Positions 12,158 to 24,626 of a stretch of 64,000 bases of DNA are shown here, piece by piece (positions within the stretch are counted from its first letter, which is position 1; the number at the start of each line of letters is the position of its first letter). The position numbers and the translations under genes were made by a program. A model generated the notes under the pieces. The model saw only the letters and a program-made list of their open reading frames with translations, had not been told where the DNA came from and made no database searches. Source of the stretch: Escherichia coli (GTDB taxonomy: Bacteria; Pseudomonadota; Gammaproteobacteria; Enterobacterales; Enterobacteriaceae); the NCBI RefSeq assembly GCF_003790525.1, contig NZ_CP033635.1, one strand, 5' to 3'.

Positions 12158-12294
12158 ATGGCAAAGCCGATCATCACGCTCAATGGCCTAAAAATCGTCA
12201 TTATGTTGGGAATGCTGGTCATTATTCTCTGCGGTATCCGTTTTGCCGCCGAGATCATCGTGCCGTTTATTCTCGCATTATTTATTGCTGTTAT
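12158..12294 (+). pseudogene. tqsA: 5' fragment of tqsA (AI-2 exporter), first ~46 codons; reading frame then runs into element DNA and stops after 7 foreign codons
   Basis: ATG at 12158 encodes [45 protein letters not shown]; the remainder of the gene resumes in frame at 23729. Confidence 0.85.
12286..12294. repeat. attL core (direct repeat 'tgctgttat')
   Basis: Identical 9-mer at 23720-23728; chromosomal tqsA sequence on the left, element-specific sequence on the right. Confidence 0.7.
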
Positions 12295-12365
12295 ATATAA
12301 CTTATTTCGCTTAACTAATTGATTTAATTAAATAATTTGCACTACAAAAAGTGCCAAAAATCGCA

Positions 12366-12391
12366 AATTAACTACACCATTAACTACACCG
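12366..12391. repeat. 26-bp element-end repeat 'aattaactacaccattaactacaccg' (tandem 'ttaactacacc'), candidate integrase arm-type site, left end
   Basis: Exact 26-bp copy at 23567-23592 next to the int start; both copies in direct orientation just inside the element ends. Confidence 0.6.
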
Positions 12392-13466: not shown

Positions 13467-13775
13467 TTACTTCCTGCGTTTATCCTGCTTTGTATGCCCG
13501 TGCTGAATGCCCCGCAGTGGATCTTCTTTTTTCAGGTCGATCCCCATGTCCGTTAGTGTTTTTGTGGCGGCGGTTCTTATGGCACAAATCAGGTCTCTTT
13601 CCGGTTCCCGGGTTATGGTTGCCTTCCGGATGCATGCCGTTCGTCGTTCCGTTACATACTGACGCGCTTCATCACTTGCCGCCTGTTTCAGTAACTCACC
13701 CCAGCGATTAGCCGCCCGTCGCCATAAACCTTTCGCTTCCAGTTCTTCCGCTTTGTCATCATGCACCATAAGCAT
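13467..13775 (-). CDS. PerC-family-like putative transcriptional activator (copy 2)
   Basis: N-terminal MVHDDKAEELEAKGLWRRAANRWGEL resembles PerC/Pch activators (recalled) and is a paralog of the 17352-17624 ORF; start chosen at an internal Met. Confidence 0.45.
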   Translation of the reverse strand: MLMVHDDKAEELEAKGLWRRAANRWGELLKQAASDEARQYVTERRTACIRKATITREPERDLICAIRTAATKTLTDMGIDLKKEDPLRGIQHGHTKQDKRRK

Positions 13776-13883
13776 AATCCCATTGATACCTGTTAACTCT
13801 GAATGGTTGGTTTCTGTTCTTTTGATAATTTCCCGCATAGCTTATTGTATGACAGTACTGTCCCACAATAAGGAGTTGCACGC

Positions 13884-14591: not shown

Positions 14592-14655
14592 CGGGTCCTT
14601 TCCGGCATGTGGACCCGTTACGGGGCGTCGACCTCGCGCGTTTTCACTATTTATG
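14592..14655 (+). other. lambda-like cos site, copy A (cosN plus flanking sequence)
   Basis: 'cgggtcctttccgg...gttacggggcgtcgacctcgcgcgttttcactatttatgaaaattttt' closely parallels the phage lambda cos junction as I recall it ('...acgggtcctttccggtgatccgacaggttacg|gggcggcgacctcgcgggttttcgctatttatgaaaattttccgg'); the 12-mer gggcgtcgacct at 14623-14634 differs from the lambda cohesive end at one base. Confidence 0.75.
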
Positions 14656-14671
14656 AAAATTTTTCGGGATC

Positions 14672-14837: not shown

Positions 14838-15272
14838 TTACTGTTCTGTATCGGCTGATTGCTCCATGCTGGCACGGCGAACGCTTACGGCATGACGCCA
14901 CCCAGCCAGAAAGCCAGCCATTTTATTTCGTGCCTTGCTCACATCTTCCGGTGAATAGCCGTAAATATGCAAACCTTCATCAAATCGATGTTCTGTTTCT
15001 TCACTGGAGTACTCGTCACGCTCAGATGAAAGCAGCCTCGCAAACATAATTTTTTCCAGCGCACTGGTTTCTACGTGATATCCGATGGTCTGAAGATGGC
15101 TTTTACCTGAATACCAAAGCAATGTATGCCCGATGTGATAACCGCCAGACTTTCCGCGATCCGCATTAAGATACGGCATCCCCTGTTTGGTCCATGCGCG
15201 AATAGTGGTTCTGTTAACCTTGAAATGTTCAGCTATTTCCTGCTGACTTACAAAACAAGCTTTATCAATCAT
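14838..15272 (-). CDS. terminase small subunit Nu1-like DNA-binding protein (possible packaging-specificity/redirecting factor)
   Basis: N-terminus QQEIAEHFKVNRTTIRAWTKQGMPYL parallels lambda Nu1 KKQLADIFGASIRTIQNWQEQGMPVL (winged HTH); C-terminal half unlike Nu1; flanked by cos-like sites. Confidence 0.65.
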   Translation of the reverse strand: MIDKACFVSQQEIAEHFKVNRTTIRAWTKQGMPYLNADRGKSGGYHIGHTLLWYSGKSHLQTIGYHVETSALEKIMFARLLSSERDEYSSEETEHRFDEGLHIYGYSPEDVSKARNKMAGFLAGWRHAVSVRRASMEQSADTEQ

Positions 15273-15339
15273 AATGTTACCTTAACTGCATGGTTAAATA
15301 TCAATCAAGTGGTGGTGGTGTCACCTTCACGGAAAAACG

Positions 15340-15403
15340 TCATAAATAGCGAAAACGTGCGAGGTCGACGCCCCGTAACGGGTCCACATGCCGGAAAGGA
15401 CCC
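15340..15403 (-). other. lambda-like cos site, copy B (inverted copy of A, cosN plus flank, without the 'ccggacat' array)
   Basis: Reverse complement matches copy A at 62 of 64 positions; lies ~70 bp upstream of the Nu1-like gene start on the same strand. Confidence 0.7.
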
Positions 15404-15404
15404 G

Positions 15405-15430
15405 CAAAAAAAGCCGGATTTCTCCGGCCT
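15405..15430 (-). terminator. rho-independent terminator after the head-gene cluster (minus strand)
   Basis: Minus-strand hairpin ggccggagaaatccggcc followed by a T-run; related hairpin motif at 17324-17345. Confidence 0.5.
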
Positions 15431-15502
15431 TGTCTCAGATGGTTTTCAGTATGCGATAGATGTCGCCGTCATCGCCCTGGTTTGTGCCATCGTTCCCCCT
15501 GC

Positions 15503-15838
15503 TTATCGGGCCAGCGGCTGAACGGATACGCCGGAACCCGCAAAGGCGGCGCATTTTTTCGCATCGGTGTCGACGCTCTCAGGCCAGTTAACGGCGGCAA
15601 TATTGAATATCCCCGTCTTGTAACACTGTGCTGATTTCTGCTTTGACGTGTCCACAGGGTACGAGGTCAGATAAACAGCCTTGCCAGATTCCTTACCATC
15701 CCACGCCTTAAACTCGCCATTGTCTGCCAGCATCAGCGGGGTAAATTCCTGAATAACGCCAGCATCAGCGGCAAAATGTACCAGCGTCGTGGATACCTGT
15801 TGGCTGCCTGAAAATAACTCAATGTATGGAGCGTCCAT
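15503..15838 (-). CDS. head decoration protein, lambda gpD-like
   Basis: 111 aa; motifs TPLMLADNGEFKAWDG, YKTGIF, NWPE and KKCAAFAG parallel lambda gpD (TPLMLDTSSRKLVAWDG, YKSGTF, LWPE, KKRTAFAG) as recalled. Confidence 0.7.
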   Translation of the reverse strand: MDAPYIELFSGSQQVSTTLVHFAADAGVIQEFTPLMLADNGEFKAWDGKESGKAVYLTSYPVDTSKQKSAQCYKTGIFNIAAVNWPESVDTDAKKCAAFAGSGVSVQPLAR

Positions 15839-15849
15839 AGAATCCCCCG

Positions 15850-16905
15850 TTAAGCAATTTTGACGGTAACAAATTTGCGAATATCTGCCGGTACAGGCTG
15901 CGGTGCGCTGTGCGTCTGCACGTACTCAATCGCCGGATCGCCGTCCTCAATCCAGTTTTTCGGGTAGTACATGTTTTGCGTTGCGCCCGTTCTTACCGCT
16001 TCCTGATCCATAATCGCACCATATGCCACCAGCCCTTTATTGTTGGTGTTACCCAGGACCAGCAAATCAGGCTCAAGGAAATATTTTTCGGTCCCGTCGC
16101 TGTCAGTGTATTTGCCGGAATAGACGATAAGGGCCAGATCACCAAGATAGCCTTTAAAGCTCACCACTTCGCCCAGGTTTTTACAGGCCAGCTCGGCGGC
16201 GGATTCTGATCCACGGGAAAGATCGTACAGTTCACGGAATTTTTTAAAGCTGCGTAATGTGCGCCATACCTCACCGCCCATAATCATGACGTTGGCGGGG
16301 CAACCTGCCTGATCAGCATAAAGCTCGATGTCATAGATTGGGTCGTGCATGTCTTTATCCTGCTGGGACCATTTTTTACCACTGGCCTGCTGTATGATGC
16401 AGTTTTCCGGTATTTTCCAGTCGATTTCATAGCGTTCTATGCCTTCGCCCTCAATGATGTTTTTTCCGGTCGTTACCGCATTCACCGCCAGCCATTCCAC
16501 GCGCGCCTTAATGGCGTTTATCTGGCGGCGCATGTTGCCAGTAATCAGGCGCATACGGCGGTAAGTTGGATCGTTAAGCTGTGCCGGATCTTCTCCATCC
16601 ATGCGCATGATGGTCTTTGTTGGATCGATTTCGTGCTTTGGCTTCATGTAGCCTGGTTTAATCGTGCTGGTTTCGTACCCTTTATCGCGCTGGACCTGAC
16701 TACCCACCATAGGAGAACAGAACGCTGACATCGTAACCTCTTCAATGTCCAGGGTGTCCAGCATGATGTTTTGGGTGTTGAAGGTCGCCACGTTCGGGAA
16801 AAACAGCGTGGTAAACAGCGGACTAAATTTATATTCCGAAATATCCCCGCGATTCAGGTACGCGAAAAGCTGGTTAGTTGTAAGTGCCTTTGCTTTGCCT
16901 GTCAT
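15850..16905 (-). CDS. major capsid protein, lambda gpE family
   Basis: 351 aa; YKFSPLFTTLFFP and PGYMKPKHEIDP parallel lambda gpE FKFDPLFLRLFF and PGYVKPKHEVNP; similar length to gpE. Confidence 0.75.
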   Translation of the reverse strand: MTGKAKALTTNQLFAYLNRGDISEYKFSPLFTTLFFPNVATFNTQNIMLDTLDIEEVTMSAFCSPMVGSQVQRDKGYETSTIKPGYMKPKHEIDPTKTIMRMDGEDPAQLNDPTYRRMRLITGNMRRQINAIKARVEWLAVNAVTTGKNIIEGEGIERYEIDWKIPENCIIQQASGKKWSQQDKDMHDPIYDIELYADQAGCPANVMIMGGEVWRTLRSFKKFRELYDLSRGSESAAELACKNLGEVVSFKGYLGDLALIVYSGKYTDSDGTEKYFLEPDLLVLGNTNNKGLVAYGAIMDQEAVRTGATQNMYYPKNWIEDGDPAIEYVQTHSAPQPVPADIRKFVTVKIA

Positions 16906-17111
16906 TATTCACCTCCGTGAACCTGATTGATACCCAGCGCCGCACGCAAATAGGTGCGCACCTGCCAGCCTGTTGACGGCTCAACCATCGCCAGCGGATC
17001 AAGTCCTGCCGCAATGCCTGCTTTTACATTCTGCTGGTGGCGTTCCTTGAGCGCCTCCACGATGTCGGGGCTTATGTAGACCGTCACCCCGCCTTTTTTC
17101 TCTTCTGCCAT
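16905..17111 (-). CDS. hypothetical protein (68 aa), first gene of the head cluster
   Basis: ORF with ATG start, stop overlaps the capsid gene start; no family recognised. Confidence 0.4.
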   Translation of the reverse strand: MAEEKKGGVTVYISPDIVEALKERHQQNVKAGIAAGLDPLAMVEPSTGWQVRTYLRAALGINQVHGGE

Positions 17112-17323
17112 AGTCAGAAATTCCTCTTTGACTTAAAAAATCATAACTGGATGTTCATCCAGTCCTGATTATAATCATGATTGCATTTTGCGCAACAATA
17201 TTGAGTTACGTTGCAAATTATGAAATGATTATCCCGATCATGTGTGTCAGTTCACCATAAAAAACCTCGTATACAAAAGCCCCATAAGCCCCCTGTGACC
17301 TTATCGGGCTTTTTTTAGGCGTA

Positions 17324-17345
17324 AAAAAGCCGGATTGCTCCGGCT
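17324..17345 (-). terminator. rho-independent terminator downstream of the PerC-like gene (minus strand)
   Basis: Minus-strand hairpin gccggagcaatccggc followed by TTTTTT. Confidence 0.5.
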
Positions 17346-17351
17346 GTGTGC

Positions 17352-17624
17352 TCACTTCTGCGGGTAGTTGCGCCATATTGCTTTGCCAATACCAGCTATC
17401 CCCATTTGTTTTTCAGTGCGATTAACTGACCTTTTCAGAGCGCCTAAATCATCCGGCGGCTCCGGTGGCCTCTGTGCCTTACGGATACATTCCGCGCGAC
17501 GCATTGCCACCTGTTCGCGCTCCTTGTCTGTCTCCACCAGCCTCATAACTTCACCCCATCGCGCCGCCGCCCTCCGGTAAAAGCCTTTTGCCTCGAGTTC
17601 CTCCGCTATGCGGTCATGTACCAT
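17352..17624 (-). CDS. PerC-family-like putative transcriptional activator (copy 1)
   Basis: MVHDRIAEELEAKGFYRRAAARWGEV...; paralog of the 13467-13775 ORF; start placed at the internal Met just after the ssb stop. Confidence 0.45.
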   Translation of the reverse strand: MVHDRIAEELEAKGFYRRAAARWGEVMRLVETDKEREQVAMRRAECIRKAQRPPEPPDDLGALKRSVNRTEKQMGIAGIGKAIWRNYPQK

Positions 17625-17634
17625 CGTCACCCCC

Positions 17635-18045
17635 TCAGAACGGAATATCATCACCGTAAGGGTCATCGCCTCCCGCTGGTGGCTGATTACCCTGTGTGCC
17701 TGTGGTTTTGCGTCTGTTCCCGCCAGGACGTGCCGCACGGGCACTGATTACGCTGTCTGCAATAACCTGCCAGCCCTGCCGCGTTTCCCCGTTCTGTCCG
17801 GTCCACTGGCTGACCTGCATCGTGCCGGATACGCTGGCAACGTCGCCTTTTTGATGTTTAGCCAGAAAGTCGGCCTGTTTGCCAAATGCGATGACCGATA
17901 ACCATAACGTCGCCTGTCCGTCCTGTGCCTGGCCGCATGGTAAAGATACCGCCATACGCGCCAGCGTCATCGGTGTACCCTTACTGGTCTGTTTTACCTG
18001 CGGGTCGTCCACCAGCCGCCCGTAAGCTGCTATCTGTGCTGTCAT
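17635..18045 (-). CDS. ssb: single-stranded DNA-binding protein (SSB)
   Basis: 136 aa with OB-fold-like core, Gly/Pro/Gln-rich linker and the acidic C-terminal tail ...DDIPF typical of SSB. Confidence 0.7.
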   Translation of the reverse strand: MTAQIAAYGRLVDDPQVKQTSKGTPMTLARMAVSLPCGQAQDGQATLWLSVIAFGKQADFLAKHQKGDVASVSGTMQVSQWTGQNGETRQGWQVIADSVISARAARPGGNRRKTTGTQGNQPPAGGDDPYGDDIPF

Positions 18046-18656: not shown

Positions 18657-18860
18657 TGCTCACCATCTCTCACTTTTACTACTCACTTTTTAAAGCGTCT
18701 CGCTTCGTCTCACTTGAGATTTTTGTGTTTTGTATGTGCATGTTTCATAAGTGTTTTTTCACTGCTCACTTTTGAGCATGTATACAGGTGAGAAAGTGAG
18801 TAATTGTGTTAATATTTTGTAAAAACCTCACCATTACTCACTTTTACTACTCACTTTTTA
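18657..18860. repeat. iteron array, candidate replication origin ('ctcactttt' repeated ~7 times, one inverted, around an AT-rich core)
   Basis: Copies at 18669, 18682, 18709 (variant), 18765, 18793 (inverted), 18837 and 18850; 'ctcacttttactactcacttttta' occurs twice; lies immediately 3' of the rep ATPase gene. Confidence 0.6.
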
Positions 18861-20264
18861 CAGTGGTCCTACATCATCACCATCAATGTAAATCACGGCG
18901 TCTTTTTCCAGTTTGGCTAACCATCGCCGCATATTTTTCACGTCATACCCAAGCCGTTTCATGTCATCACGTAACAGCGGGATCGTGCACTTGTCGCCGT
19001 TCTGTGTGCGTGAACGGATGCACCCCCATAGCGCGGTATGGTTTTCCGTCTTGTTGCCTGCCTCCTCGATGCGCTCCAGTTCAGCAGGGGCGCGGGGAAC
19101 GTCAATCACCACCATGGACACAATTTCTTCGCCATCTGTATCGGTGAACACCTCCACGCTTTTAAGGTCGTATGCACTCTCTTTTGGCTCCTCTGCGTCC
19201 TTCATCTTCGTACACGCCGCAACCAGTGCTGTAACGTCTGAATTTTCCCTGCTGATTCGGTACTCTGCATCAAGCGCGGCACGGAATGCACTGGAACCAC
19301 GCGCCCCCTTTGTTTCATCCTTGCCGGAATGGTGAACCACCAGCACCGTGGCCCCTGTGGCCTGCTTTATCGCGTCACACCCCTGGATAAATGCGCCCAT
19401 ATCACGGGAATCATTTTCATCATTCCCACCAAAGCAACGGGCCAGCGTGTCGATCACAATCAGCCGCACATTTTCGCCCGTTCTGCTCTTAACAAGTCCG
19501 GCAGTCCTGATAACCTGCTCCACATAGTCAGGCGATGCAGGGAAAACAGGCGCGTTAATGATGCACAAATCTGTAACCACCTTGTCGTGGGTTATCTCCC
19601 ACGCCTTAACGCGGCGTTTTACGCCCATGCTGCCTTCACCAGCGATATAGATAACCGCACCCTTACTTACCCTGCGGCCTCCCCATGCCATACCTGTGGC
19701 AACATGGCACGACCAGGAAATGGCGAGGAACGATTTATAAGAACCGCTGGCCCCGTAGGTGCTGCATAATGACTCAGCCGGAATAAGCCCCTTAATGACG
19801 TAGCTTTGCTGCGCATCGAATCCCTCAGAACCCCATGAGATGGGAAGTGTGATTTTTCGCTTTCCGCCATTCATGACCAGGCTTTCCCCTCTCTCCCATG
19901 TTTCCCGTAGTCGTGGTAGCTGGTCGCTCCAGTCCTCCAGCAGTTCGAAATTTTCAGAAAGTAGCCGCGCCTCCTGGACTCCGGCGATCGCCAGTTTTGT
20001 GGCAATGGTCAGCATCTGCATATCGTCCAGGTTTCCGGCGCGTATGACCTTTACCCTGTATCGTCCTTCATCAACAATCTGTAAGTTGTCCAGTTCGCTT
20101 AACTGATAACGGCCCAGATAAACCGGAGGGATGGGATCGCCTGCTTTTTTGGCCTGTGCAATCATGTAATGTTCTGCAAAGGAGTGAGCATTATCACCCG
20201 CAAAAATAACCGCCTCAGTGTGTTTATCTTTCGGTAACAGTTTTACGTTCGGTGCAAGTTTCAT
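18858..20264 (-). CDS. replication protein with RecA-like P-loop ATPase domain (RepA/DnaB-like, satellite pri-rep type)
   Basis: 468 aa; Walker A YGASGSYKS, Walker B-like RLIVIDTL, HHSGK motif; C-terminal region possibly DNA-binding; iterons directly downstream. Confidence 0.65.
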   Translation of the reverse strand: MKLAPNVKLLPKDKHTEAVIFAGDNAHSFAEHYMIAQAKKAGDPIPPVYLGRYQLSELDNLQIVDEGRYRVKVIRAGNLDDMQMLTIATKLAIAGVQEARLLSENFELLEDWSDQLPRLRETWERGESLVMNGGKRKITLPISWGSEGFDAQQSYVIKGLIPAESLCSTYGASGSYKSFLAISWSCHVATGMAWGGRRVSKGAVIYIAGEGSMGVKRRVKAWEITHDKVVTDLCIINAPVFPASPDYVEQVIRTAGLVKSRTGENVRLIVIDTLARCFGGNDENDSRDMGAFIQGCDAIKQATGATVLVVHHSGKDETKGARGSSAFRAALDAEYRISRENSDVTALVAACTKMKDAEEPKESAYDLKSVEVFTDTDGEEIVSMVVIDVPRAPAELERIEEAGNKTENHTALWGCIRSRTQNGDKCTIPLLRDDMKRLGYDVKNMRRWLAKLEKDAVIYIDGDDVGPL

Positions 20265-20548
20265 TTCTTACCCCCTGCGACCAGCATTTCACGGATTTTG
20301 CGGATATAACTTGCAGCACGTTTCTGATTAACGGCTTTACGATGGCCCACCAGCGTGAAATCACGCCGGAACTGATAAACAGGCATAACGCAGTCATATT
20401 CGTAGCCTTCACGGCGGTAAGTGATGCGACGTTCCTCCACGCCCTTAATCATTACCGTGCCGCCGTAGTTATCACGGAAAATATCGCCGGGACGGATTTC
20501 AGGACGAGCGGGGCCGCTGGCATTAACGCCAGAATTTTTATTTTTCAT
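20261..20548 (-). CDS. hypothetical protein (95 aa), translationally coupled upstream of rep
   Basis: ORF overlapping the rep start by 4 nt; basic; no family recognised. Confidence 0.45.
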   Translation of the reverse strand: MKNKNSGVNASGPARPEIRPGDIFRDNYGGTVMIKGVEERRITYRREGYEYDCVMPVYQFRRDFTLVGHRKAVNQKRAASYIRKIREMLVAGGKK

Positions 20549-20553
20549 GTTTT

Positions 20554-20781
20554 TTATTCTCCGGTGTGCTGTTCTTTATATCTGTCGTGAATTGCCATCA
20601 CTGTATTTAATTCATTAATAACAGCCGTTAATAGCGTACGCACGGCAGAAAACATCATTGAATCAGATTCATCGCCACTTTCCTGCACATCAATTAAATT
20701 AAGTAGTAATGCGTCCATTTCCTTTGCGCGGATTAATGCCTTTTCACAATGAAAAATAACACCAAAGGGTATTTTATTCAT
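20554..20781 (-). CDS. hypothetical protein (~75 aa; ORF-track frame extends to 20823)
   Basis: First gene of the minus-strand replication operon; start uncertain (MNKIPFGV... versus the upstream Met). Confidence 0.4.
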   Translation of the reverse strand: MNKIPFGVIFHCEKALIRAKEMDALLLNLIDVQESGDESDSMMFSAVRTLLTAVINELNTVMAIHDRYKEQHTGE

Positions 20782-21060
20782 GACTCCCCTCCTGACGGAT
20801 ACGGGCGGCGAATACAGCGACACAACCGGACGGGCAACGGTTACGCGCTTCGCGTTCCGTCCAGGCGGTCACGTGGATAATTTGAGATTCTCCGGCACTC
20901 AGTGCCAGAAAACGCCACACAAAGGCGGTTTGTGTGTGCGCTAGTCGTGGGGTATGCTGTGTTCCAGCCATAATCGTTACTCCTGTTAACGGTTTGGTTA
21001 GACGCCCTGCATGTGTTACAGCACTGCGGGGCGTTGTCTTTTTAACGGCTTTCGTGATAG

Positions 21061-21104
21061 GGTGTACACCTATCAAGCAAAAACATAACGCTATAGGTGT
21101 ACAC
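21061..21104. promoter_or_regulatory. perfect 12-bp inverted repeat (gtgtacacctat ... ataggtgtacac), candidate operator abutting a small regulator gene
   Basis: Read directly from sequence; the 3' half ends 1 nt before the ATG at 21105. Confidence 0.5.
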
Positions 21105-21299
21105 ATGTCAACAGTTATTAAGCGAGATAAAAAACCAAAGGGAACAGGAAAAGCCCCCCCATTCCATATGCGAATAGCTCCAGAACTGAAAGAGCAGTTT
21201 GATAATGAGGCCAGCAATGATGGGGTAAGCCTAGCCAACTGGCTTAAAGAGTTGGGGCGCGCCGAACTAAAGCGACGCGGCATTGAACCTAAAGGCTGA
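21105..21299 (+). CDS. small basic protein (64 aa), possible ribbon-helix-helix/YlcI-YnfO-like prophage regulator
   Basis: MSTVIKRDKKPKGTGKAPPFHMRIAPELKEQFDNEASNDGVSLANWLKELGRAELKRRGIEPKG; family assignment from memory only; divergent from the replication operon. Confidence 0.4.
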   Translation: MSTVIKRDKKPKGTGKAPPFHMRIAPELKEQFDNEASNDGVSLANWLKELGRAELKRRGIEPKG

Positions 21300-21302
21300 T
21301 GT

Positions 21303-21426
21303 ATGACTGAAAAGCAGACCGATAACAAACTTTCTCTACCAGAGAATAAACCAGCAGGCTTCTTACCAAGAAAAATCCTTGATGAGATCAAACGCCGCCA
21401 GCGCCGCAAGGCCAAAGAGCAGGAAT
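21303..21426 (+). CDS. possible small protein (41 aa, Lys/Arg-rich C-terminus)
   Basis: ATG 4 nt after the preceding stop; MTEKQTDNKLSLPENKPAGFLPRKILDEIKRRQRRKAKEQE; followed by a strong hairpin terminator. Too short for the ORF track. Confidence 0.25.
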
Positions 21427-21460
21427 AGCCCACCAGCAAGCCAGCACACTGATCACATTG

Positions 21461-21490
21461 GCCACCGTGACAGGTGGCCTTTTCTTTGCC
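21461..21490 (+). terminator. rho-independent terminator (ggccaccgtgacaggtggcc + T-rich tract)
   Basis: Perfect 7-bp stem with 6-nt loop followed by ttttctttg, just after the 41-codon ORF. Confidence 0.55.
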
Positions 21491-21752
21491 CGTTATCCGG
21501 CAATTGTGGCGCTTCGCCACACGGTTGATATAATTCCCCTGCTCAGATTCATTTTTTGCGCGGCAGGTAAATTGTTCAGAAAGGCGGCTCCTTATCGGGG
21601 CCGCTTTTTTTATGTCTGAAAAACCGCGATTTTGTTGTTTTTCAGTTTCACCAGGCCGAACGAAGCCCCGCCCATGTTCGGGCGTATATCCAGTCTTCAT
21701 GGTTAAATCTCTGTATTAGTGGATGGGTGGCGGCTGTGTGCCGCCAGTCTTT

Positions 21753-21941
21753 TTAGTGAACTGCCTCGCAGCTTTCCTTCCATGCCAGAACTTCGGATAA
21801 AGACCAGCCAACGGAACGACCGCCCAGCTTACGCCGTGATGGGAATTGTCCGGCCTTTTCCAGGCGGTAGCGGCATGAGCGGCTAAGGCCTGTTAGCTTT
21901 TCGCATTCTTTTTCACGTATAAAGCGATCAGTGCTTAACAC
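21753..21941 (-). CDS. alpA: AlpA-family (Phage_AlpA) transcriptional regulator
   Basis: 62 aa; ...EKLTGLSRSCRYRLEKAGQFPSRRKLGGRSVGWSLSEVLAW... matches the AlpA HTH signature; adjacent to int. Confidence 0.75.
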   Translation of the reverse strand: MLSTDRFIREKECEKLTGLSRSCRYRLEKAGQFPSRRKLGGRSVGWSLSEVLAWKESCEAVH

Positions 21942-22315: not shown

Positions 22316-23563
22316 TTATTTTCTTCTGGCTACTGGTAGCGTGGTTACGTTTTCATGTGCTCCCGCCAGTATCTCCAACCGCTCCACCCACATATCCAGC
22401 GCATTGCGTTTCGCATCCAGATAACGGGAATGATTATAAACTCGCTGCATTCCTGGCATCTGGTGGCCTGTAAGCTGCTCCACGACGTGAGGATCCACGC
22501 CTAAATCGTTCAGCATCGTTGTAAAGGTGCGCCGGATGTCATGCAGTGACCATTGAGGGTGTTTTAGCCTCCTGTGCGCTAATCTGCCGTACTGCGATAC
22601 GCTGGCCTCCTGTTTCACTTCCCCCAGTAATAAGCCCGTGTGCCTGTTCTGCTCCACCAGCCGCGTGACGAACGGCAGGATCGCTTCCGGTATGGGCCGG
22701 AATATTGCGACCTTCGTTTTGCTGTGCTCCTTCGGAACGGTCCAGAGCATTTCCGTGAAATCCCACTCCCCGATCTCCGATAACCTCAGTTCTACCGTCC
22801 TGGCTCCGAAGACAATCAGGAGGCGGATTAGTGCGACGTAGTAAGGGGAAAATATTTTTTTGTCCAGTGCCTGCAATAATTCGCCCAGTTCTTTGGTGCT
22901 TAAGACACGTTCGCTTATATCCGGTTTTTTCCCAACGTCCGCCACGTTCAGATCGTCCAGAACGTTGCTGATTGCATAGCGCCGCCTCCGGCAAAACTTA
23001 AGCGCCTGTTTGCACGCCTGTAGCACGAATCCGGCAGTAACAGGCGTTCGCTTTGCCACCCGATCAAAACAGGCCAGCCAGTGCCGTAGCTCGCATTTAT
23101 CCAGCGGCATAGCACCAATGTGCTGTATTACGTGATTATTAAGTCGCCTTTTCAGGGCGATATAATCCACGCGGTTTTCCTTTACGTAAGACTCAAGCCA
23201 GTAGGTGAGCGCATCTCCAACCGTTACAGGCTTTAACGCTTCCTGCATGGTGTAATTCATCTCATGACGTGGATTTTTCCCCTCAGCCAGCCATGCGCGA
23301 CACTGGGCGGCTTTTTCCCTGGCTGATTTCAGGCTCAGATCAGGATAATTTCCCAGCTTAATACGTTCCGGTCGTGTCTCTCTTCCCGTTCCGGCCCTGT
23401 AAGTGAAATACCAGGTTAAAAGGCCGCTGGTTGAATGCCTGACGCTCAGATTTCCACCGTCATTAAGAAAGGCTGTTTTTTGGGCGGGTGTGCCGTTGAT
23501 TTTCCTTAGCTGTGTATCGCTCAGCTTGTTAAGTGCTCTGGTCATAATTTTGAATCCGGTCAT
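22316..23563 (-). CDS. int: tyrosine site-specific integrase (P4-type)
   Basis: ~415 aa; N-terminal arm-binding-like region, C-terminal catalytic motifs (HDIRRTF, GHQ..VYNHSRY); located at the element's right end next to the arm-type repeat. Exact start uncertain (GTG/ATG/ATG cluster). Confidence 0.85.
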   Translation of the reverse strand: MTGFKIMTRALNKLSDTQLRKINGTPAQKTAFLNDGGNLSVRHSTSGLLTWYFTYRAGTGRETRPERIKLGNYPDLSLKSAREKAAQCRAWLAEGKNPRHEMNYTMQEALKPVTVGDALTYWLESYVKENRVDYIALKRRLNNHVIQHIGAMPLDKCELRHWLACFDRVAKRTPVTAGFVLQACKQALKFCRRRRYAISNVLDDLNVADVGKKPDISERVLSTKELGELLQALDKKIFSPYYVALIRLLIVFGARTVELRLSEIGEWDFTEMLWTVPKEHSKTKVAIFRPIPEAILPFVTRLVEQNRHTGLLLGEVKQEASVSQYGRLAHRRLKHPQWSLHDIRRTFTTMLNDLGVDPHVVEQLTGHQMPGMQRVYNHSRYLDAKRNALDMWVERLEILAGAHENVTTLPVARRK

Positions 23564-23566
23564 CAC

Positions 23567-23592
23567 AATTAACTACACCATTAACTACACCG
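23567..23592. repeat. 26-bp element-end repeat (same as 12366-12391), right end, immediately upstream of int
   Basis: Exact 26/26 identity with the left copy. Confidence 0.6.
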
Positions 23593-23728: not shown

Positions 23729-24626
23729 TCTTAACCCGCTGGTGCAACACATGGTCCGCTGGCGAGTGCCGCGTGTACTGGCGGTGTCGATTTTGATGAC
23801 CATCATCGTGATGGCGATGGTGTTGCTGTTAGCTTATCTGGGTTCCGCGCTCAACGAGTTGACGCGGACGTTACCGCAATATCGCAACTCTATTATGACG
23901 CCGCTGCAAGCGATTGAACCGTTGTTGCAACGCGTAGGGATTGATGTCTCAGTTGACCAACTGGCGCATTACATTGATCCGAACGCGGCAATGACGTTGC
24001 TCACCAACTTATTGACGCAGTTATCTAATGCCATGTCATCAATCTTTTTATTGCTGCTGACGGTGCTGTTTATGTTGCTCGAAGTGCCACAATTGCCCGG
24101 AAAATTTCAGCAAATGATGGTGCGTCCGGTTGAAGGGATGGCGGCGATTCAGCGTGCGATTGACAGTGTGTCTCATTATCTGGTGCTGAAAACAGCCATC
24201 AGCATCATCACCGGCCTGGTCGCCTGGGCGATGCTCGCCGCACTCGATGTTCGCTTCGCTTTTGTCTGGGGATTGCTGGCCTTTGCGCTTAATTACATCC
24301 CTAATATTGGTTCAGTTCTCGCGGCAATCCCCCCTATCGCTCAGGTACTGGTGTTTAATGGCTTCTACGAAGCGTTGCTGGTGCTGGCGGGATATCTGCT
24401 AATTAATCTGGTCTTCGGCAATATTCTGGAGCCGCGCATCATGGGACGTGGGCTGGGGCTTTCCACATTGGTGGTATTTTTGTCGTTGATTTTTTGGGGA
24501 TGGTTGTTAGGACCGGTGGGTATGCTGCTTTCCGTGCCGTTAACAATTATTGTCAAAATTGCGCTTGAACAAACAACGGGAGGTCAAAGCATCGCCGTTC
24601 TGTTAAGCGATCTCAACAAAGAGTGA
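23729..24626 (+). pseudogene. tqsA: 3' portion of tqsA (AI-2 exporter, AI-2E/PerM family), separated from its 5' end by the element
   Basis: In-frame continuation ([12 protein letters not shown]...) of the fragment ending at 12294; upstream frame closed by tga/taa in element DNA; only an internal GTG/ATG could restart translation. Confidence 0.8.

Follow-up and report, generated by a model that had tools for sequence, protein, structure and literature searches.

Several satellites related to the locus described here have been characterized. For EcCICFT073, the prototype to which our island is most usefully compared, helper-induced excision, replication and high-frequency transfer have been shown experimentally (PMC6092414). 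The gene pair that concerns us is already known from that island: it was described and knocked out in 2018, and a crystal structure of the capsid protein is in the PDB. Of 29 reference PICIs, 21 carry a capsid gene (PMC10111431). The cf-PICIs, such as EcCIEDL933, encode the whole head and packaging set (portal, protease, connectors, HNH, TerS and TerL), and borrow only tails (bioRxiv 10.1101/2022.09.08.507074). Helper-embedded PICIs of the 11capE type carry a capsid-decoration pair and sit inside helper late genes, including E, B and others (Mageeney et al. 2023). Two other satellites have a homologue of a capsid protein. PmCI172 has such a homologue and makes small heads (PMC6092414; PMC6893505), and Ccm of SaPIbov5, a capsid-protein homologue, redirects capsid size and shape (PMC8569155).

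We analysed a window of 64 kb, by which we mean the whole stretch of DNA under study. Positions 15503–17111 of this window are almost certainly the conserved capsid module, consisting of a small ORF, a gpE-type shell gene and a gpD-type decoration gene, of a classical Gram-negative PICI that is close to EcCICFT073 and is inserted in tqsA. A sequence-only reading of the same DNA had regarded the module as an orphan and as an unusual way of exploiting a helper phage. Instead, this arrangement is a conserved property of classical Gram-negative PICIs.

All three genes of the module are on the minus strand. The major capsid protein gene (15850–16905) encodes a 351-aa protein of the lambda gpE family (HK97 fold). 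The protein matches Pfam PF03864 (Phage_cap_E; 2.3e-49) over model positions 14–328 of 329, which is near full length, and PHROG 29, “major head protein” (1.7e-108). In a PDB search, residues 1–351 match 3BQW with 95% identity (E 4.8e-229). This entry is the crystal structure of c1499 of EcCICFT073, titled in the PDB as a CFT073 “putative capsid protein of prophage”. The lambda gpE structure 7VI9 is matched at 4.4e-81, and the structures 7VI9 and 3BQW establish that the HK97-type gpE fold is common to lambda and the PICI capsid family. The 111-aa product of the next gene (15503–15838) is a head decoration protein of the lambda gpD/phage 21 SHP family, with matches to Pfam PF02924 (HDPD; 5e-17), PHROG 49, “head decoration” (2e-26), the phage 21 SHP structures 1TD0 and 1TD3 (7.5e-13), and the lambda gpD structures 1C5E and 7VII (~1e-9; 8e-10 for 1C5E). 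Thus, Pfam, PHROG and PDB profile matches confirm the gpE-like and gpD-like identities that had been proposed from shared motifs.

The island pair belongs to the same Pfam families as D and E of lambda, shp and gene 7 of phage 21, and the corresponding proteins of Gifsy-1. The island also has a lambda-like cos. However, identity to lambda is only 43% for the gpE-like protein and 35% for the gpD-like protein, the gene order is E then D rather than D then E, and the island, unlike lambda, is without B, C/Nu3, W, FI, FII, A and Nu1.

The third gene of the module is a conserved ORF of 68 aa (16905–17111) whose stop codon overlaps the start of the capsid gene (ATGA); the capsid gene is translationally coupled to this partner. 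The ORF matches PHROG 3255 (8.7e-36), which is in the category “unknown function”, and is 57–63% identical to its counterparts in more distant PICIs. An AlphaFold2 model from a four-sequence alignment has three helices, with a pLDDT of 71. The pattern VTVYISPDIVEALKER...GWQVRTYLRAAL hinted at a ribbon-helix-helix regulator, but this was not supported: the sole Pfam hit was a non-significant match to BrnA_antitoxin (E 0.36), a PDB profile search gave nothing meaningful, and a Foldseek search of the model against the PDB gave zero hits at E < 1.

Similarity to EcCICFT073 extends along the island. Identity is 95.2% for the capsid protein (c1499), 96.4% for the decoration protein (c1500), 95.8% for Rpp and 92.6% for the small ORF. 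Both islands have the order small ORF, capsid gene, decoration gene, cos, rpp, both have int, alpA, DUF4222, a replication gene, ssb and perC in a unidirectional arrangement, and both have two lambda-like cos copies (PMC6739421). They differ in integration site, which is tqsA here and next to phoQ for EcCICFT073, and in the replication gene, which encodes a RepA/AAA_25 helicase here and a D5-type primase in EcCICFT073. In EcCICFT073 alone, a further gene, encoding 137 aa, separates the decoration gene from rpp. Synonymous divergence between the two islands is mosaic, at 0.29 for the capsid gene and 0.011 for rpp.

The island is ~11.2 kb long, rather than the 11.4 kb first estimated, as delimited by 26-nt exact direct repeats. 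A direct-repeat search placed the distal att repeat at 12366–12391; the int-proximal repeat (AATTAACTACACCATTAACTACACCG), an exact match to it, is at 23567–23592, inside the disrupted tqsA. The 26-nt repeats are nested in a 69-nt repeat of 77% identity. E. coli CM2 holds a 99.3%-identical copy of the island, with 24 RefSeq CDS. The core genes are all on the minus strand, and the layout is int, alpA, repA with a candidate ori, ssb, perC, capsid module, cos, rpp, cos. The tyrosine integrase gene is at 22316–23566 (PHROG 1, 2.3e-73, with which the CM2 RefSeq annotation concurs), and a gene for an AlpA-type HTH regulator/excisionase is at 21753–21941 (PHROG 2790, and PHROG 66, “excisionase and transcriptional regulator”, 1.3e-17). 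The DUF4222 gene (20261–20548) is directly upstream of repA (18858–20264), which encodes a RepA-family replicative helicase (PHROG 2850, 3.8e-188; PHROG 906, “DNA polymerase/primase”; “helicase RepA family protein” in the RefSeq annotation of the CM2 copy). Immediately 3ʹ of repA, the region 18659–18863 contains two 37-nt direct repeats (18659–18695 and 18827–18863) that are 92% identical. These repeats are a candidate replication origin, and they lie where the ori of PICIs has been placed in published work, downstream of pri (PMC6092414). A single-stranded DNA-binding protein (17635–18045; PHROG 44, 4e-41) and a PerC-family regulator (17352–17624; RefSeq, PHROG 994 and PHROG 10396, “transcriptional activator”) are encoded between the candidate ori and the capsid module.

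On the other side of the module are the packaging functions. The lambda-type cos copy A (15327–15404, minus strand) aligns to the first ~60 nt of the lambda left end and includes a cosN-like sequence, GGGCGTCGACCT, at 15362–15373, with one mismatch to lambda cosN. It is oriented into rpp, as lambda cos is into Nu1. Copy B (14592–14669, plus strand; cosN-like sequence at 14623–14634) is inverted relative to copy A and likewise aligns to the lambda left end, and the two copies are the arms of a 78-nt inverted repeat (91%). Between them, rpp (redirecting phage packaging; 14838–15272, minus strand) encodes a 144-aa protein with a TerS-like HTH, which matches PHROG 57, terminase small subunit (1.1e-8), in the N-terminal HTH only. 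Its percentage identity to EcCICFT073, given above, refers to a 144-aa protein of that island that we took to be RppA/c1503 because the published description gives RppA as 144 residues (PMC6739421).

The earlier proposal that the element is a phage satellite is borne out. The features of a classical Gram-negative PICI found here are a terminal integrase, att repeats and a chromosomal site; alpA after int, a replication gene with a candidate ori, genes in one direction and a length in the 10–15 kb range; and rpp with a lambda-type cos, without lytic, tail, portal or terminase structural genes. As the sequence-only reading had stated, no portal, protease, scaffold, large terminase, W, FI or FII gene is present among the 24 RefSeq CDS of the CM2 copy or in PHROG scans of 18 island ORFs. 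The same two sources revealed no lytic or tail genes. Nor are the missing head genes elsewhere in the window: the 64-kb stretch is collinear (>99%) with the CM2 core chromosome, with ynfF...mdtJI on one side of the island and tqsA-pntAB...gstA on the other, and hence contains no prophage. Since the shell and decoration proteins are the only head proteins encoded, the helper must supply the portal, scaffold/protease and terminase.

These features also set the island apart from two other PICI types. Like the cf-PICIs, it has an int-alpA-rep backbone and its own HK97-fold capsid protein, but it encodes only shell and decoration proteins; the portal, protease, connectors, TerS, TerL and HNH of cf-PICIs were not found in the RefSeq annotation or PHROG scans. 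Like the 11capE-type islands, it has a capsid-decoration pair and the order int-alpA-pri-ssb. In contrast to their position within helper genes, it is in chromosomal tqsA with core chromosome on both sides, and the 11capE-type capsid protein is ~54% identical to that of the window.

The capsid module is bracketed by hairpin terminators, one on each side. The terminator that closes the module, which had been noted at 15405–15430, is real: a hairpin (GGCCGGAGAAAUCCGGCU) at 15407–15430 on the minus strand, with a folding energy of −19.1 kcal/mol (z = −3.2), is followed by U7. A consensus terminator scan did not list this hairpin, but reading and folding did confirm it. A near-copy (−13.9 kcal/mol, z = −3.2) is upstream of the module at 17328–17345, after perC. 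A perfect TATAAT at 17168–17173 (minus strand), upstream of the module, is a candidate −10 box by consensus match only; the sole −35 candidate is a weak TTGCGC with 16-nt spacing.

The capsid gene is under purifying selection. Relative to CFT073, dN/dS is 0.084 for the capsid gene (dS 0.29), 0.15 for the 68-aa ORF and 0.24 for the decoration gene. A close variant of the module, at a coverage of at least 80%, is found in 610 of 5,426 complete E. coli genomes, and the cluster (94% identity) that includes the capsid protein has 1,951 member sequences, with a full-length representative of 351 aa. We compared eight satellite capsid proteins, all encoded in an int-alpA-pri setting, from E. coli, Salmonella, Serratia and Edwardsiella. 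They are 50–95% identical to one another and 39–46% identical to the proteins of lambda, phage 21, Gifsy-1 and their embedding helpers. In a neighbour-joining tree they form one clade, separate from lambda gpE, with conserved motifs of its own and small indels relative to phage gpE. None of 50,697 phage records has a protein more than 47% identical to the window capsid protein. In the satellite loci compared, the decoration gene accompanies the capsid gene every time, always in the order E then D, and the pair and its order are kept across genera at 50–70% identity.

What is the function of a capsid module in an island that must use the portal and scaffold of its helper? In EcCICFT073, deletion of c1499 or c1500 neither restored lambda plaques nor altered island transfer (PMC6092414). 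Transfer by the native CFT073 prophage was likewise not reduced by either deletion, and an island marked with c1499::cat was still transferred by phi80 at ~1e6/ml (PMC6092414). Hence, any contribution of these genes is dispensable under the conditions tested. While the finding itself involves no new biology, there is a puzzle: a satellite-specific gene pair that is dispensable for transfer and interference in the laboratory is retained under strong purifying selection in hundreds of E. coli genomes, as well as in relatives from Salmonella, Serratia and Edwardsiella. The reason for retention would tell whether classical PICIs fall between “steal everything” satellites and capsid-forming PICIs, and could bear on the engineering of PICI-based delivery particles.

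The explanation that we favor, with somewhat less than even confidence, is that the module supplies real shell and cement subunits that are used on the helper portal and scaffold, and that are redundant in the laboratory. More tentatively still, we propose the following mechanism, in which expression timing, incorporation into particles and benefit to the island are the parts that we infer. A lambda-type helper would induce the island, and the module would be transcribed as its own unit between the two terminators. The PICI shell protein would then be assembled on the helper portal, scaffold and protease into lambda-type procapsids, and the island's decoration protein would cement it after expansion, presumably as trimers at the three-fold sites. 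PICI DNA would thereby gain shells in addition to, or in place of, those of the helper. This DNA would be cut at the lambda-type cos of the island by helper terminase retargeted by Rpp, and would be packaged as a multimer of 4 x 11.2 kb = 44.8 kb, ~92% of the lambda genome. In laboratory work with lambda or phi80, the gpE and gpD of the helper would suffice, such that the module would be redundant and knockouts would have no phenotype.

Dependence on a lambda-type helper is supported by the resemblance of cos to the lambda left end, by the presence of rpp, and by the location of related islands inside prophages whose head modules are of the lambda type. Lambda gpD attaches to the shell only once this has expanded, and makes DNA-filled heads more stable. 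Retention of a matching decoration protein therefore suggests that the shell protein forms real, filled capsids. On the other hand, the PICI shell protein is only 39–46% identical to those of helpers, and may not be compatible with the helper scaffold and portal. The selective benefit could also lie outside capsid building, given strong purifying selection and no laboratory phenotype.

It is possible, although unlikely, that when the natural helper is a phage other than lambda, all three genes of the module contribute to satellite-specific shells, built on the portal and scaffold of that helper, and thus to a private capsid pool. Such shells might differ in size, be favored by the Rpp-TerS-TerL packaging complex, or evade capsid-sensing defences, and they would account for strong purifying selection without a laboratory phenotype.

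Somewhat more doubtful is size redirection in the manner of Ccm, whereby, with a natural non-lambda helper, the PICI shell protein would force the formation of small capsids (T=4 or T=3) from which the helper genome is excluded, either by taking particular lattice positions or by forming the entire shell. SaPIbov5 provides a precedent (PMC8569155): like our island, it is a cos-type satellite with a diverged homologue of the helper's major capsid protein. The capsid homologue and small heads of PmCI172 (PMC6092414; PMC6893505) also favor this idea, as do the distinct motifs and small indels of the PICI capsid clade relative to phage gpE. Ccm is unrelated in sequence to the island capsid protein and is not accompanied by a decoration protein. 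Going by the known pairs P4/P2 and SaPI1/80alpha, the capacity of a T=4 head is about a third of the genome packaged by its T=7 counterpart, which corresponds to ~16 kb for lambda. An 11.2-kb monomer would be only ~68% of this, and a dimer ~135%, whereas a tetramer would be 92% of T=7. This arithmetic argues against the T=4 fit that had been raised for the island, and for the concatemer packaging raised along with it. Moreover, Ccm redirects size and shape and interferes with its helper, and neither effect was seen for the EcCICFT073 homologue with lambda. Indeed, lambda-packaged EcCICFT073 DNA was all phage-sized, from which the authors ruled out size redirection, and interference persisted when the capsid gene was deleted (PMC6092414). 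The smaller capsids suggested by the sequence-only reading are thus contradicted for lambda.

Equally doubtful is the idea, proposed by Mageeney et al. (PMC10111431), that the capsid gene is a back-up for a helper-embedded lifestyle: it would replace the helper gene interrupted by the island, most often E, and would be a mere passenger in the tqsA island. Consistent with this, two relatives (L005 and L006) are inside gene E of lambda-like prophages, a junction between a prophage gene E fragment and a satellite integrase is found in 172 of 5,426 genomes, and another relative (L015) is inside a portal gene. However, L015, and a related PICI in a tail-gene cluster (L014), carry the capsid gene and not a copy of the gene that they interrupt. 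The window island and EcCICFT073 are both chromosomal, and the capsid dN/dS is 0.08 nonetheless. Furthermore, the capsid clade is an old one with members in several genera, which is not the pattern of repeated recent captures.

Poisoning of capsid assembly in the helper or in competing lambdoid phages, by the shell or the decoration protein, is improbable. A diverged subunit could in principle be dominant negative in a mixed lattice, and the helpers tested are only lambda, phi80 and HK97. For lambda, however, the published deletion and expression results for EcCICFT073 contradict this suggestion of the earlier reading. When genes downstream of ori were expressed singly from pBAD18, only c1503 (rpp) inhibited lambda (PMC6739421), and deletion of c1503 fully restored lambda plaquing with the capsid and decoration genes still in place (PMC6739421). 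As described above, deletion of c1499 or c1500 gave no relief (PMC6092414). A poison would also need no co-conserved cognate decoration protein.

A non-structural role, such as a decoy or trigger for capsid-sensing immunity, or packaging specificity through gpFI-like docking, is similarly improbable. Purifying selection without a transfer or interference phenotype allows for a conditional role, and the conserved, translationally coupled 68-aa partner is compatible with one, but retention of the full shell-protein sequence and of a cognate decoration protein favors a structural role. Finally, a functionless, decaying remnant of a captured phage late region would fit the knockouts without phenotype and the proposal that PICIs capture and then lose late genes (PMC10111431), but is strongly disfavored by intact, full-length ORFs with dN/dS of 0.08–0.24, by conservation of the pair and its order across genera at 50–70% identity, and by the module's own flanking terminators.

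Among phage records, we observed small vB_EcoM-569R10 entries with a 43%-identical decoration gene. These are not larger capsid-bearing satellites; they are myovirus fragments with a full lambda-type head module in the order D then E. Insertion of a satellite in the capsid gene of its own helper is already published (PMC10111431). For L005 and L006, an automatic 12-mer direct-repeat search gave no att core. Read from the junctions, attL and attR have the common sequence AACCCAAGCA at the PGYVKPKHE codons, and this 10-bp block agrees with the published one.

The 351-aa ORF (15850-16905) and the 111-aa ORF (15503-15838), both on the minus strand, encode a lambda gpE-family capsid protein and a decoration protein. 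They are preceded by a 68-aa ORF (16905-17111, minus strand), and all three are co-directional, with the stop codon of the 68-aa ORF overlapping the start codon of the 351-aa ORF. Pfam Phage_cap_E matches the 351-aa protein nearly end to end (E = 2.3e-49). PHROG 29, "major head protein" (1.7e-108), and the lambda gpE structure 7VI9 (4.4e-81) match it too; PDB 3BQW, a "putative capsid protein of prophage", covers all 351 residues (E = 4.8e-229). The 111-aa protein is matched by Pfam HDPD (5e-17), PHROG 49, "head decoration" (2e-26), phage 21 SHP (1TD0; 7.5e-13) and, also in the PDB, lambda gpD. These matches bear out the gpE-like and gpD-like assignments of the sequence-only reading: the two are genuine shell and cement proteins. 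A single 3.2-kb Logan contig (P0032) encodes a 463-aa protein with Phage_cap_E followed by HDPD, a capsid-decoration fusion in E-then-D order that could be a frameshift or assembly artefact.

The module lies in a classical Gram-negative phage-inducible chromosomal island (PICI) of ~11.2 kb, bounded by 26-nt direct repeats (12366-12391 and 23567-23592) and splitting tqsA. The pieces of this AI-2 transporter gene, a short 5ʹ fragment (12158-12301) and a long 3ʹ fragment (23742-24626), are both annotated as pseudogene pieces in E. coli CM2, which carries a 99.3% identical copy of the island. Along the minus strand, the order is integrase, AlpA-type regulator, small ORFs including an Icd-like gene, a DUF4222 gene, a RepA-family helicase with 37-nt repeats just downstream (a candidate origin), SSB, a PerC-family regulator, the capsid module, a lambda-type cos, a 144-aa TerS-like HTH protein, a second, inverted cos copy, and a handful of small accessory ORFs, one of them another PerC-like gene. 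A 308-aa ORF that mechanical ORF calling places at 20774-21700 is unlikely to be a real gene; it overlaps several small annotated genes of the CM2 copy, among them the Icd-like gene and, on the other strand, a HicB-like gene. Each cos copy aligns to the left end of lambda over the first ~60 nt. They form a 78-nt, 91% inverted repeat (14592-14669 and 15327-15404) that flanks rpp (redirecting phage packaging), with the cosN sites facing each other. For the prototype E. coli PICI, EcCICFT073, two sites, cos1 and cos2, are reported, cos1 alone being required, and the available part of the published account contains no discussion of their relative orientation (PMC6739421).

Neither the RefSeq annotation of the CM2 copy nor PHROG scans revealed portal, protease/scaffold, large terminase, W, FI or FII genes in the island, as the sequence-only reading had stated. 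That reading allowed for the missing head genes lying next to the island. Comparison of the whole window with CM2 found none adjoining it; the island apart, the window is collinear at >99% with the CM2 core chromosome from ynfF to gstA. For everything besides the shell and cement proteins, the island relies on a lambda-type helper.

The arrangement, considered unusual when the element was correctly seen as a satellite, is already known from PICIs. EcCICFT073 has the same order of small ORF, capsid gene, decoration gene and rpp, and the respective proteins are 92.6%, 95.2%, 96.4% and (144-aa Rpp) 95.8% identical to those of the window. PDB 3BQW is the CFT073 capsid protein; its differences from the window protein are those of the genome-derived CFT073 sequence. 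Synonymous divergence is mosaic, at 0.29 for the capsid gene, 0.07 for the decoration gene and 0.011 for rpp (14838-16905 against L012:5669-8094, the EcCICFT073 locus), which suggests that recent recombination brought in an almost identical rpp/cos segment. Fillol-Salom et al. 2018 described c1499 as a putative capsid protein and c1500 as a head decoration protein (PMC6092414), and Mageeney et al. 2023 found a capsid gene in 21 of 29 reference PICIs, unnecessary for helper-assisted transfer (PMC10111431). Interest now centers on the function of these widespread and strongly conserved genes.

What might that function be? Most economically, the PICI shell and decoration proteins would be incorporated into helper-scaffolded procapsids. 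In lambda, gpD attaches to the shell only in its expanded state and stabilizes DNA-filled heads. Our main argument is that there would be no point in a cognate decoration protein that co-evolves with the PICI shell protein unless the latter provides the three-fold sites of genuine, filled capsids. We tentatively favor, at a little short of an even chance, a supplementary or alternative shell supply that is redundant in the laboratory.

The altered or small capsids envisaged earlier are at odds with tests using lambda: lambda-packaged DNA of the 95%-identical prototype is phage-sized (PMC6092414), and a review by Dokland that drew the Ccm comparison also noted full-size packaging (PMC6893505). 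By arithmetic, four islands of 11.2 kb make 44.8 kb, which is 92% of the lambda genome and within lambda's packaging range, a tetramer size that would agree with the phage-sized DNA reported. Judging from P4/P2 and SaPI1/80alpha, the capacity of a T=4 head is roughly a third of the corresponding T=7 genome. By analogy, a lambda-type T=4 head would hold ~16 kb, and one monomer would fill only ~68% of it. Small-capsid redirection with helpers other than those tried is unlikely. We consider it similarly doubtful that the pair is a back-up copy tied to a helper-embedded lifestyle.

Poisoning of helper capsids, also suggested from sequence, is contradicted for lambda and phi80, and we regard it as improbable. 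Deletion of c1499 or c1500 in the 95%-identical prototype did not restore lambda plaquing and left transfer by the resident prophage unaffected (PMC6092414). In Fillol-Salom et al. 2019, the genes downstream of the origin were each expressed from pBAD18 and only c1503 (rppA) blocked lambda; deletion of c1503 fully restored plaquing (PMC6739421). A non-structural role has an equally slim chance. A decaying remnant is the least credible reading, contradicted by selection: between the window and CFT073, dN/dS is 0.084 for the capsid gene (dS 0.29), 0.15 for the 68-aa ORF and 0.24 for the decoration gene. More distant pairs still give low values, but with saturated synonymous sites. The module is functional and maintained by selection.

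Of 5,426 complete E. coli genomes, 610 carry the module at a coverage of at least 80%, and ~390 more have more distant matches. Homologous proteins, at 52-94% identity, are found across E. coli, Salmonella, Edwardsiella, Serratia and other Enterobacterales. All contexts inspected are int-alpA-pri islands in which the decoration gene comes after the capsid gene, whereas lambda, phage 21, Gifsy-1 and a lambda-headed myovirus have D-then-E order. Among themselves, PICI capsid proteins share 50-95% identity, against only 39-46% with phage proteins; two embedded ones are 45.6% and 43.7% identical to the proteins of their own helper prophages. They form one clade in a neighbor-joining tree, with clade-specific conserved motifs, and none of 50,697 phage records searched exceeds 47% identity. 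Together, these observations show that PICI capsid genes are an old satellite lineage rather than recent captures.

Some relatives lie within phage genes or gene clusters. A PICI with a capsid protein 54% identical to that of the window interrupts gene E of a lambda-like prophage at two loci (L005:1511-13073 and L006:1532-13690), inserted at the PGYVKPKHE codons, with AACCCAAGCA common to attL and attR. The junction of the gene E fragment with the integrase gene occurs in 172 of the 5,426 genomes, and this PICI is already published as the helper-embedded 11capE (PMC10111431). Same-clade, capsid-bearing PICIs also lie inside the portal gene of an Edwardsiella lambda-like prophage (L015:1-14626), whose own D and E genes are intact beside the satellite's pair, and, in Salmonella, within a P2-type cluster of tail genes (L014:1-18963).

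The terminator predicted at 15405-15430 folds into a strong hairpin (-19.1 kcal/mol, z = -3.2) with U7 behind it, and a near-identical hairpin (17328-17345) closes the perC gene preceding the module. Given these hairpins, the three ORFs appear to form a transcription unit of their own; a perfect TATAAT at 17168-17173 is a consensus match only. The 68-aa ORF (PHROG 3255) is 57-93% identical across the islands carrying it. It is translationally coupled to the capsid gene and may be a third module member. Although its product has a sequence pattern resembling ribbon-helix-helix proteins, family, PDB and fold searches gave no significant match for it. The gene tables of the 11capE-type islands (L004-L006) and of two further related loci (L013 and L014), which cover called genes, list no ORF at this position, a ~265-nt gap upstream of the capsid gene. 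Of the two PerC-family regulator genes, one (17352-17624) is immediately upstream of the capsid module and the other (13467-13838) is in the accessory region; in pathogenic E. coli, the LEE locus is under the control of proteins of the PerC/Pch type.
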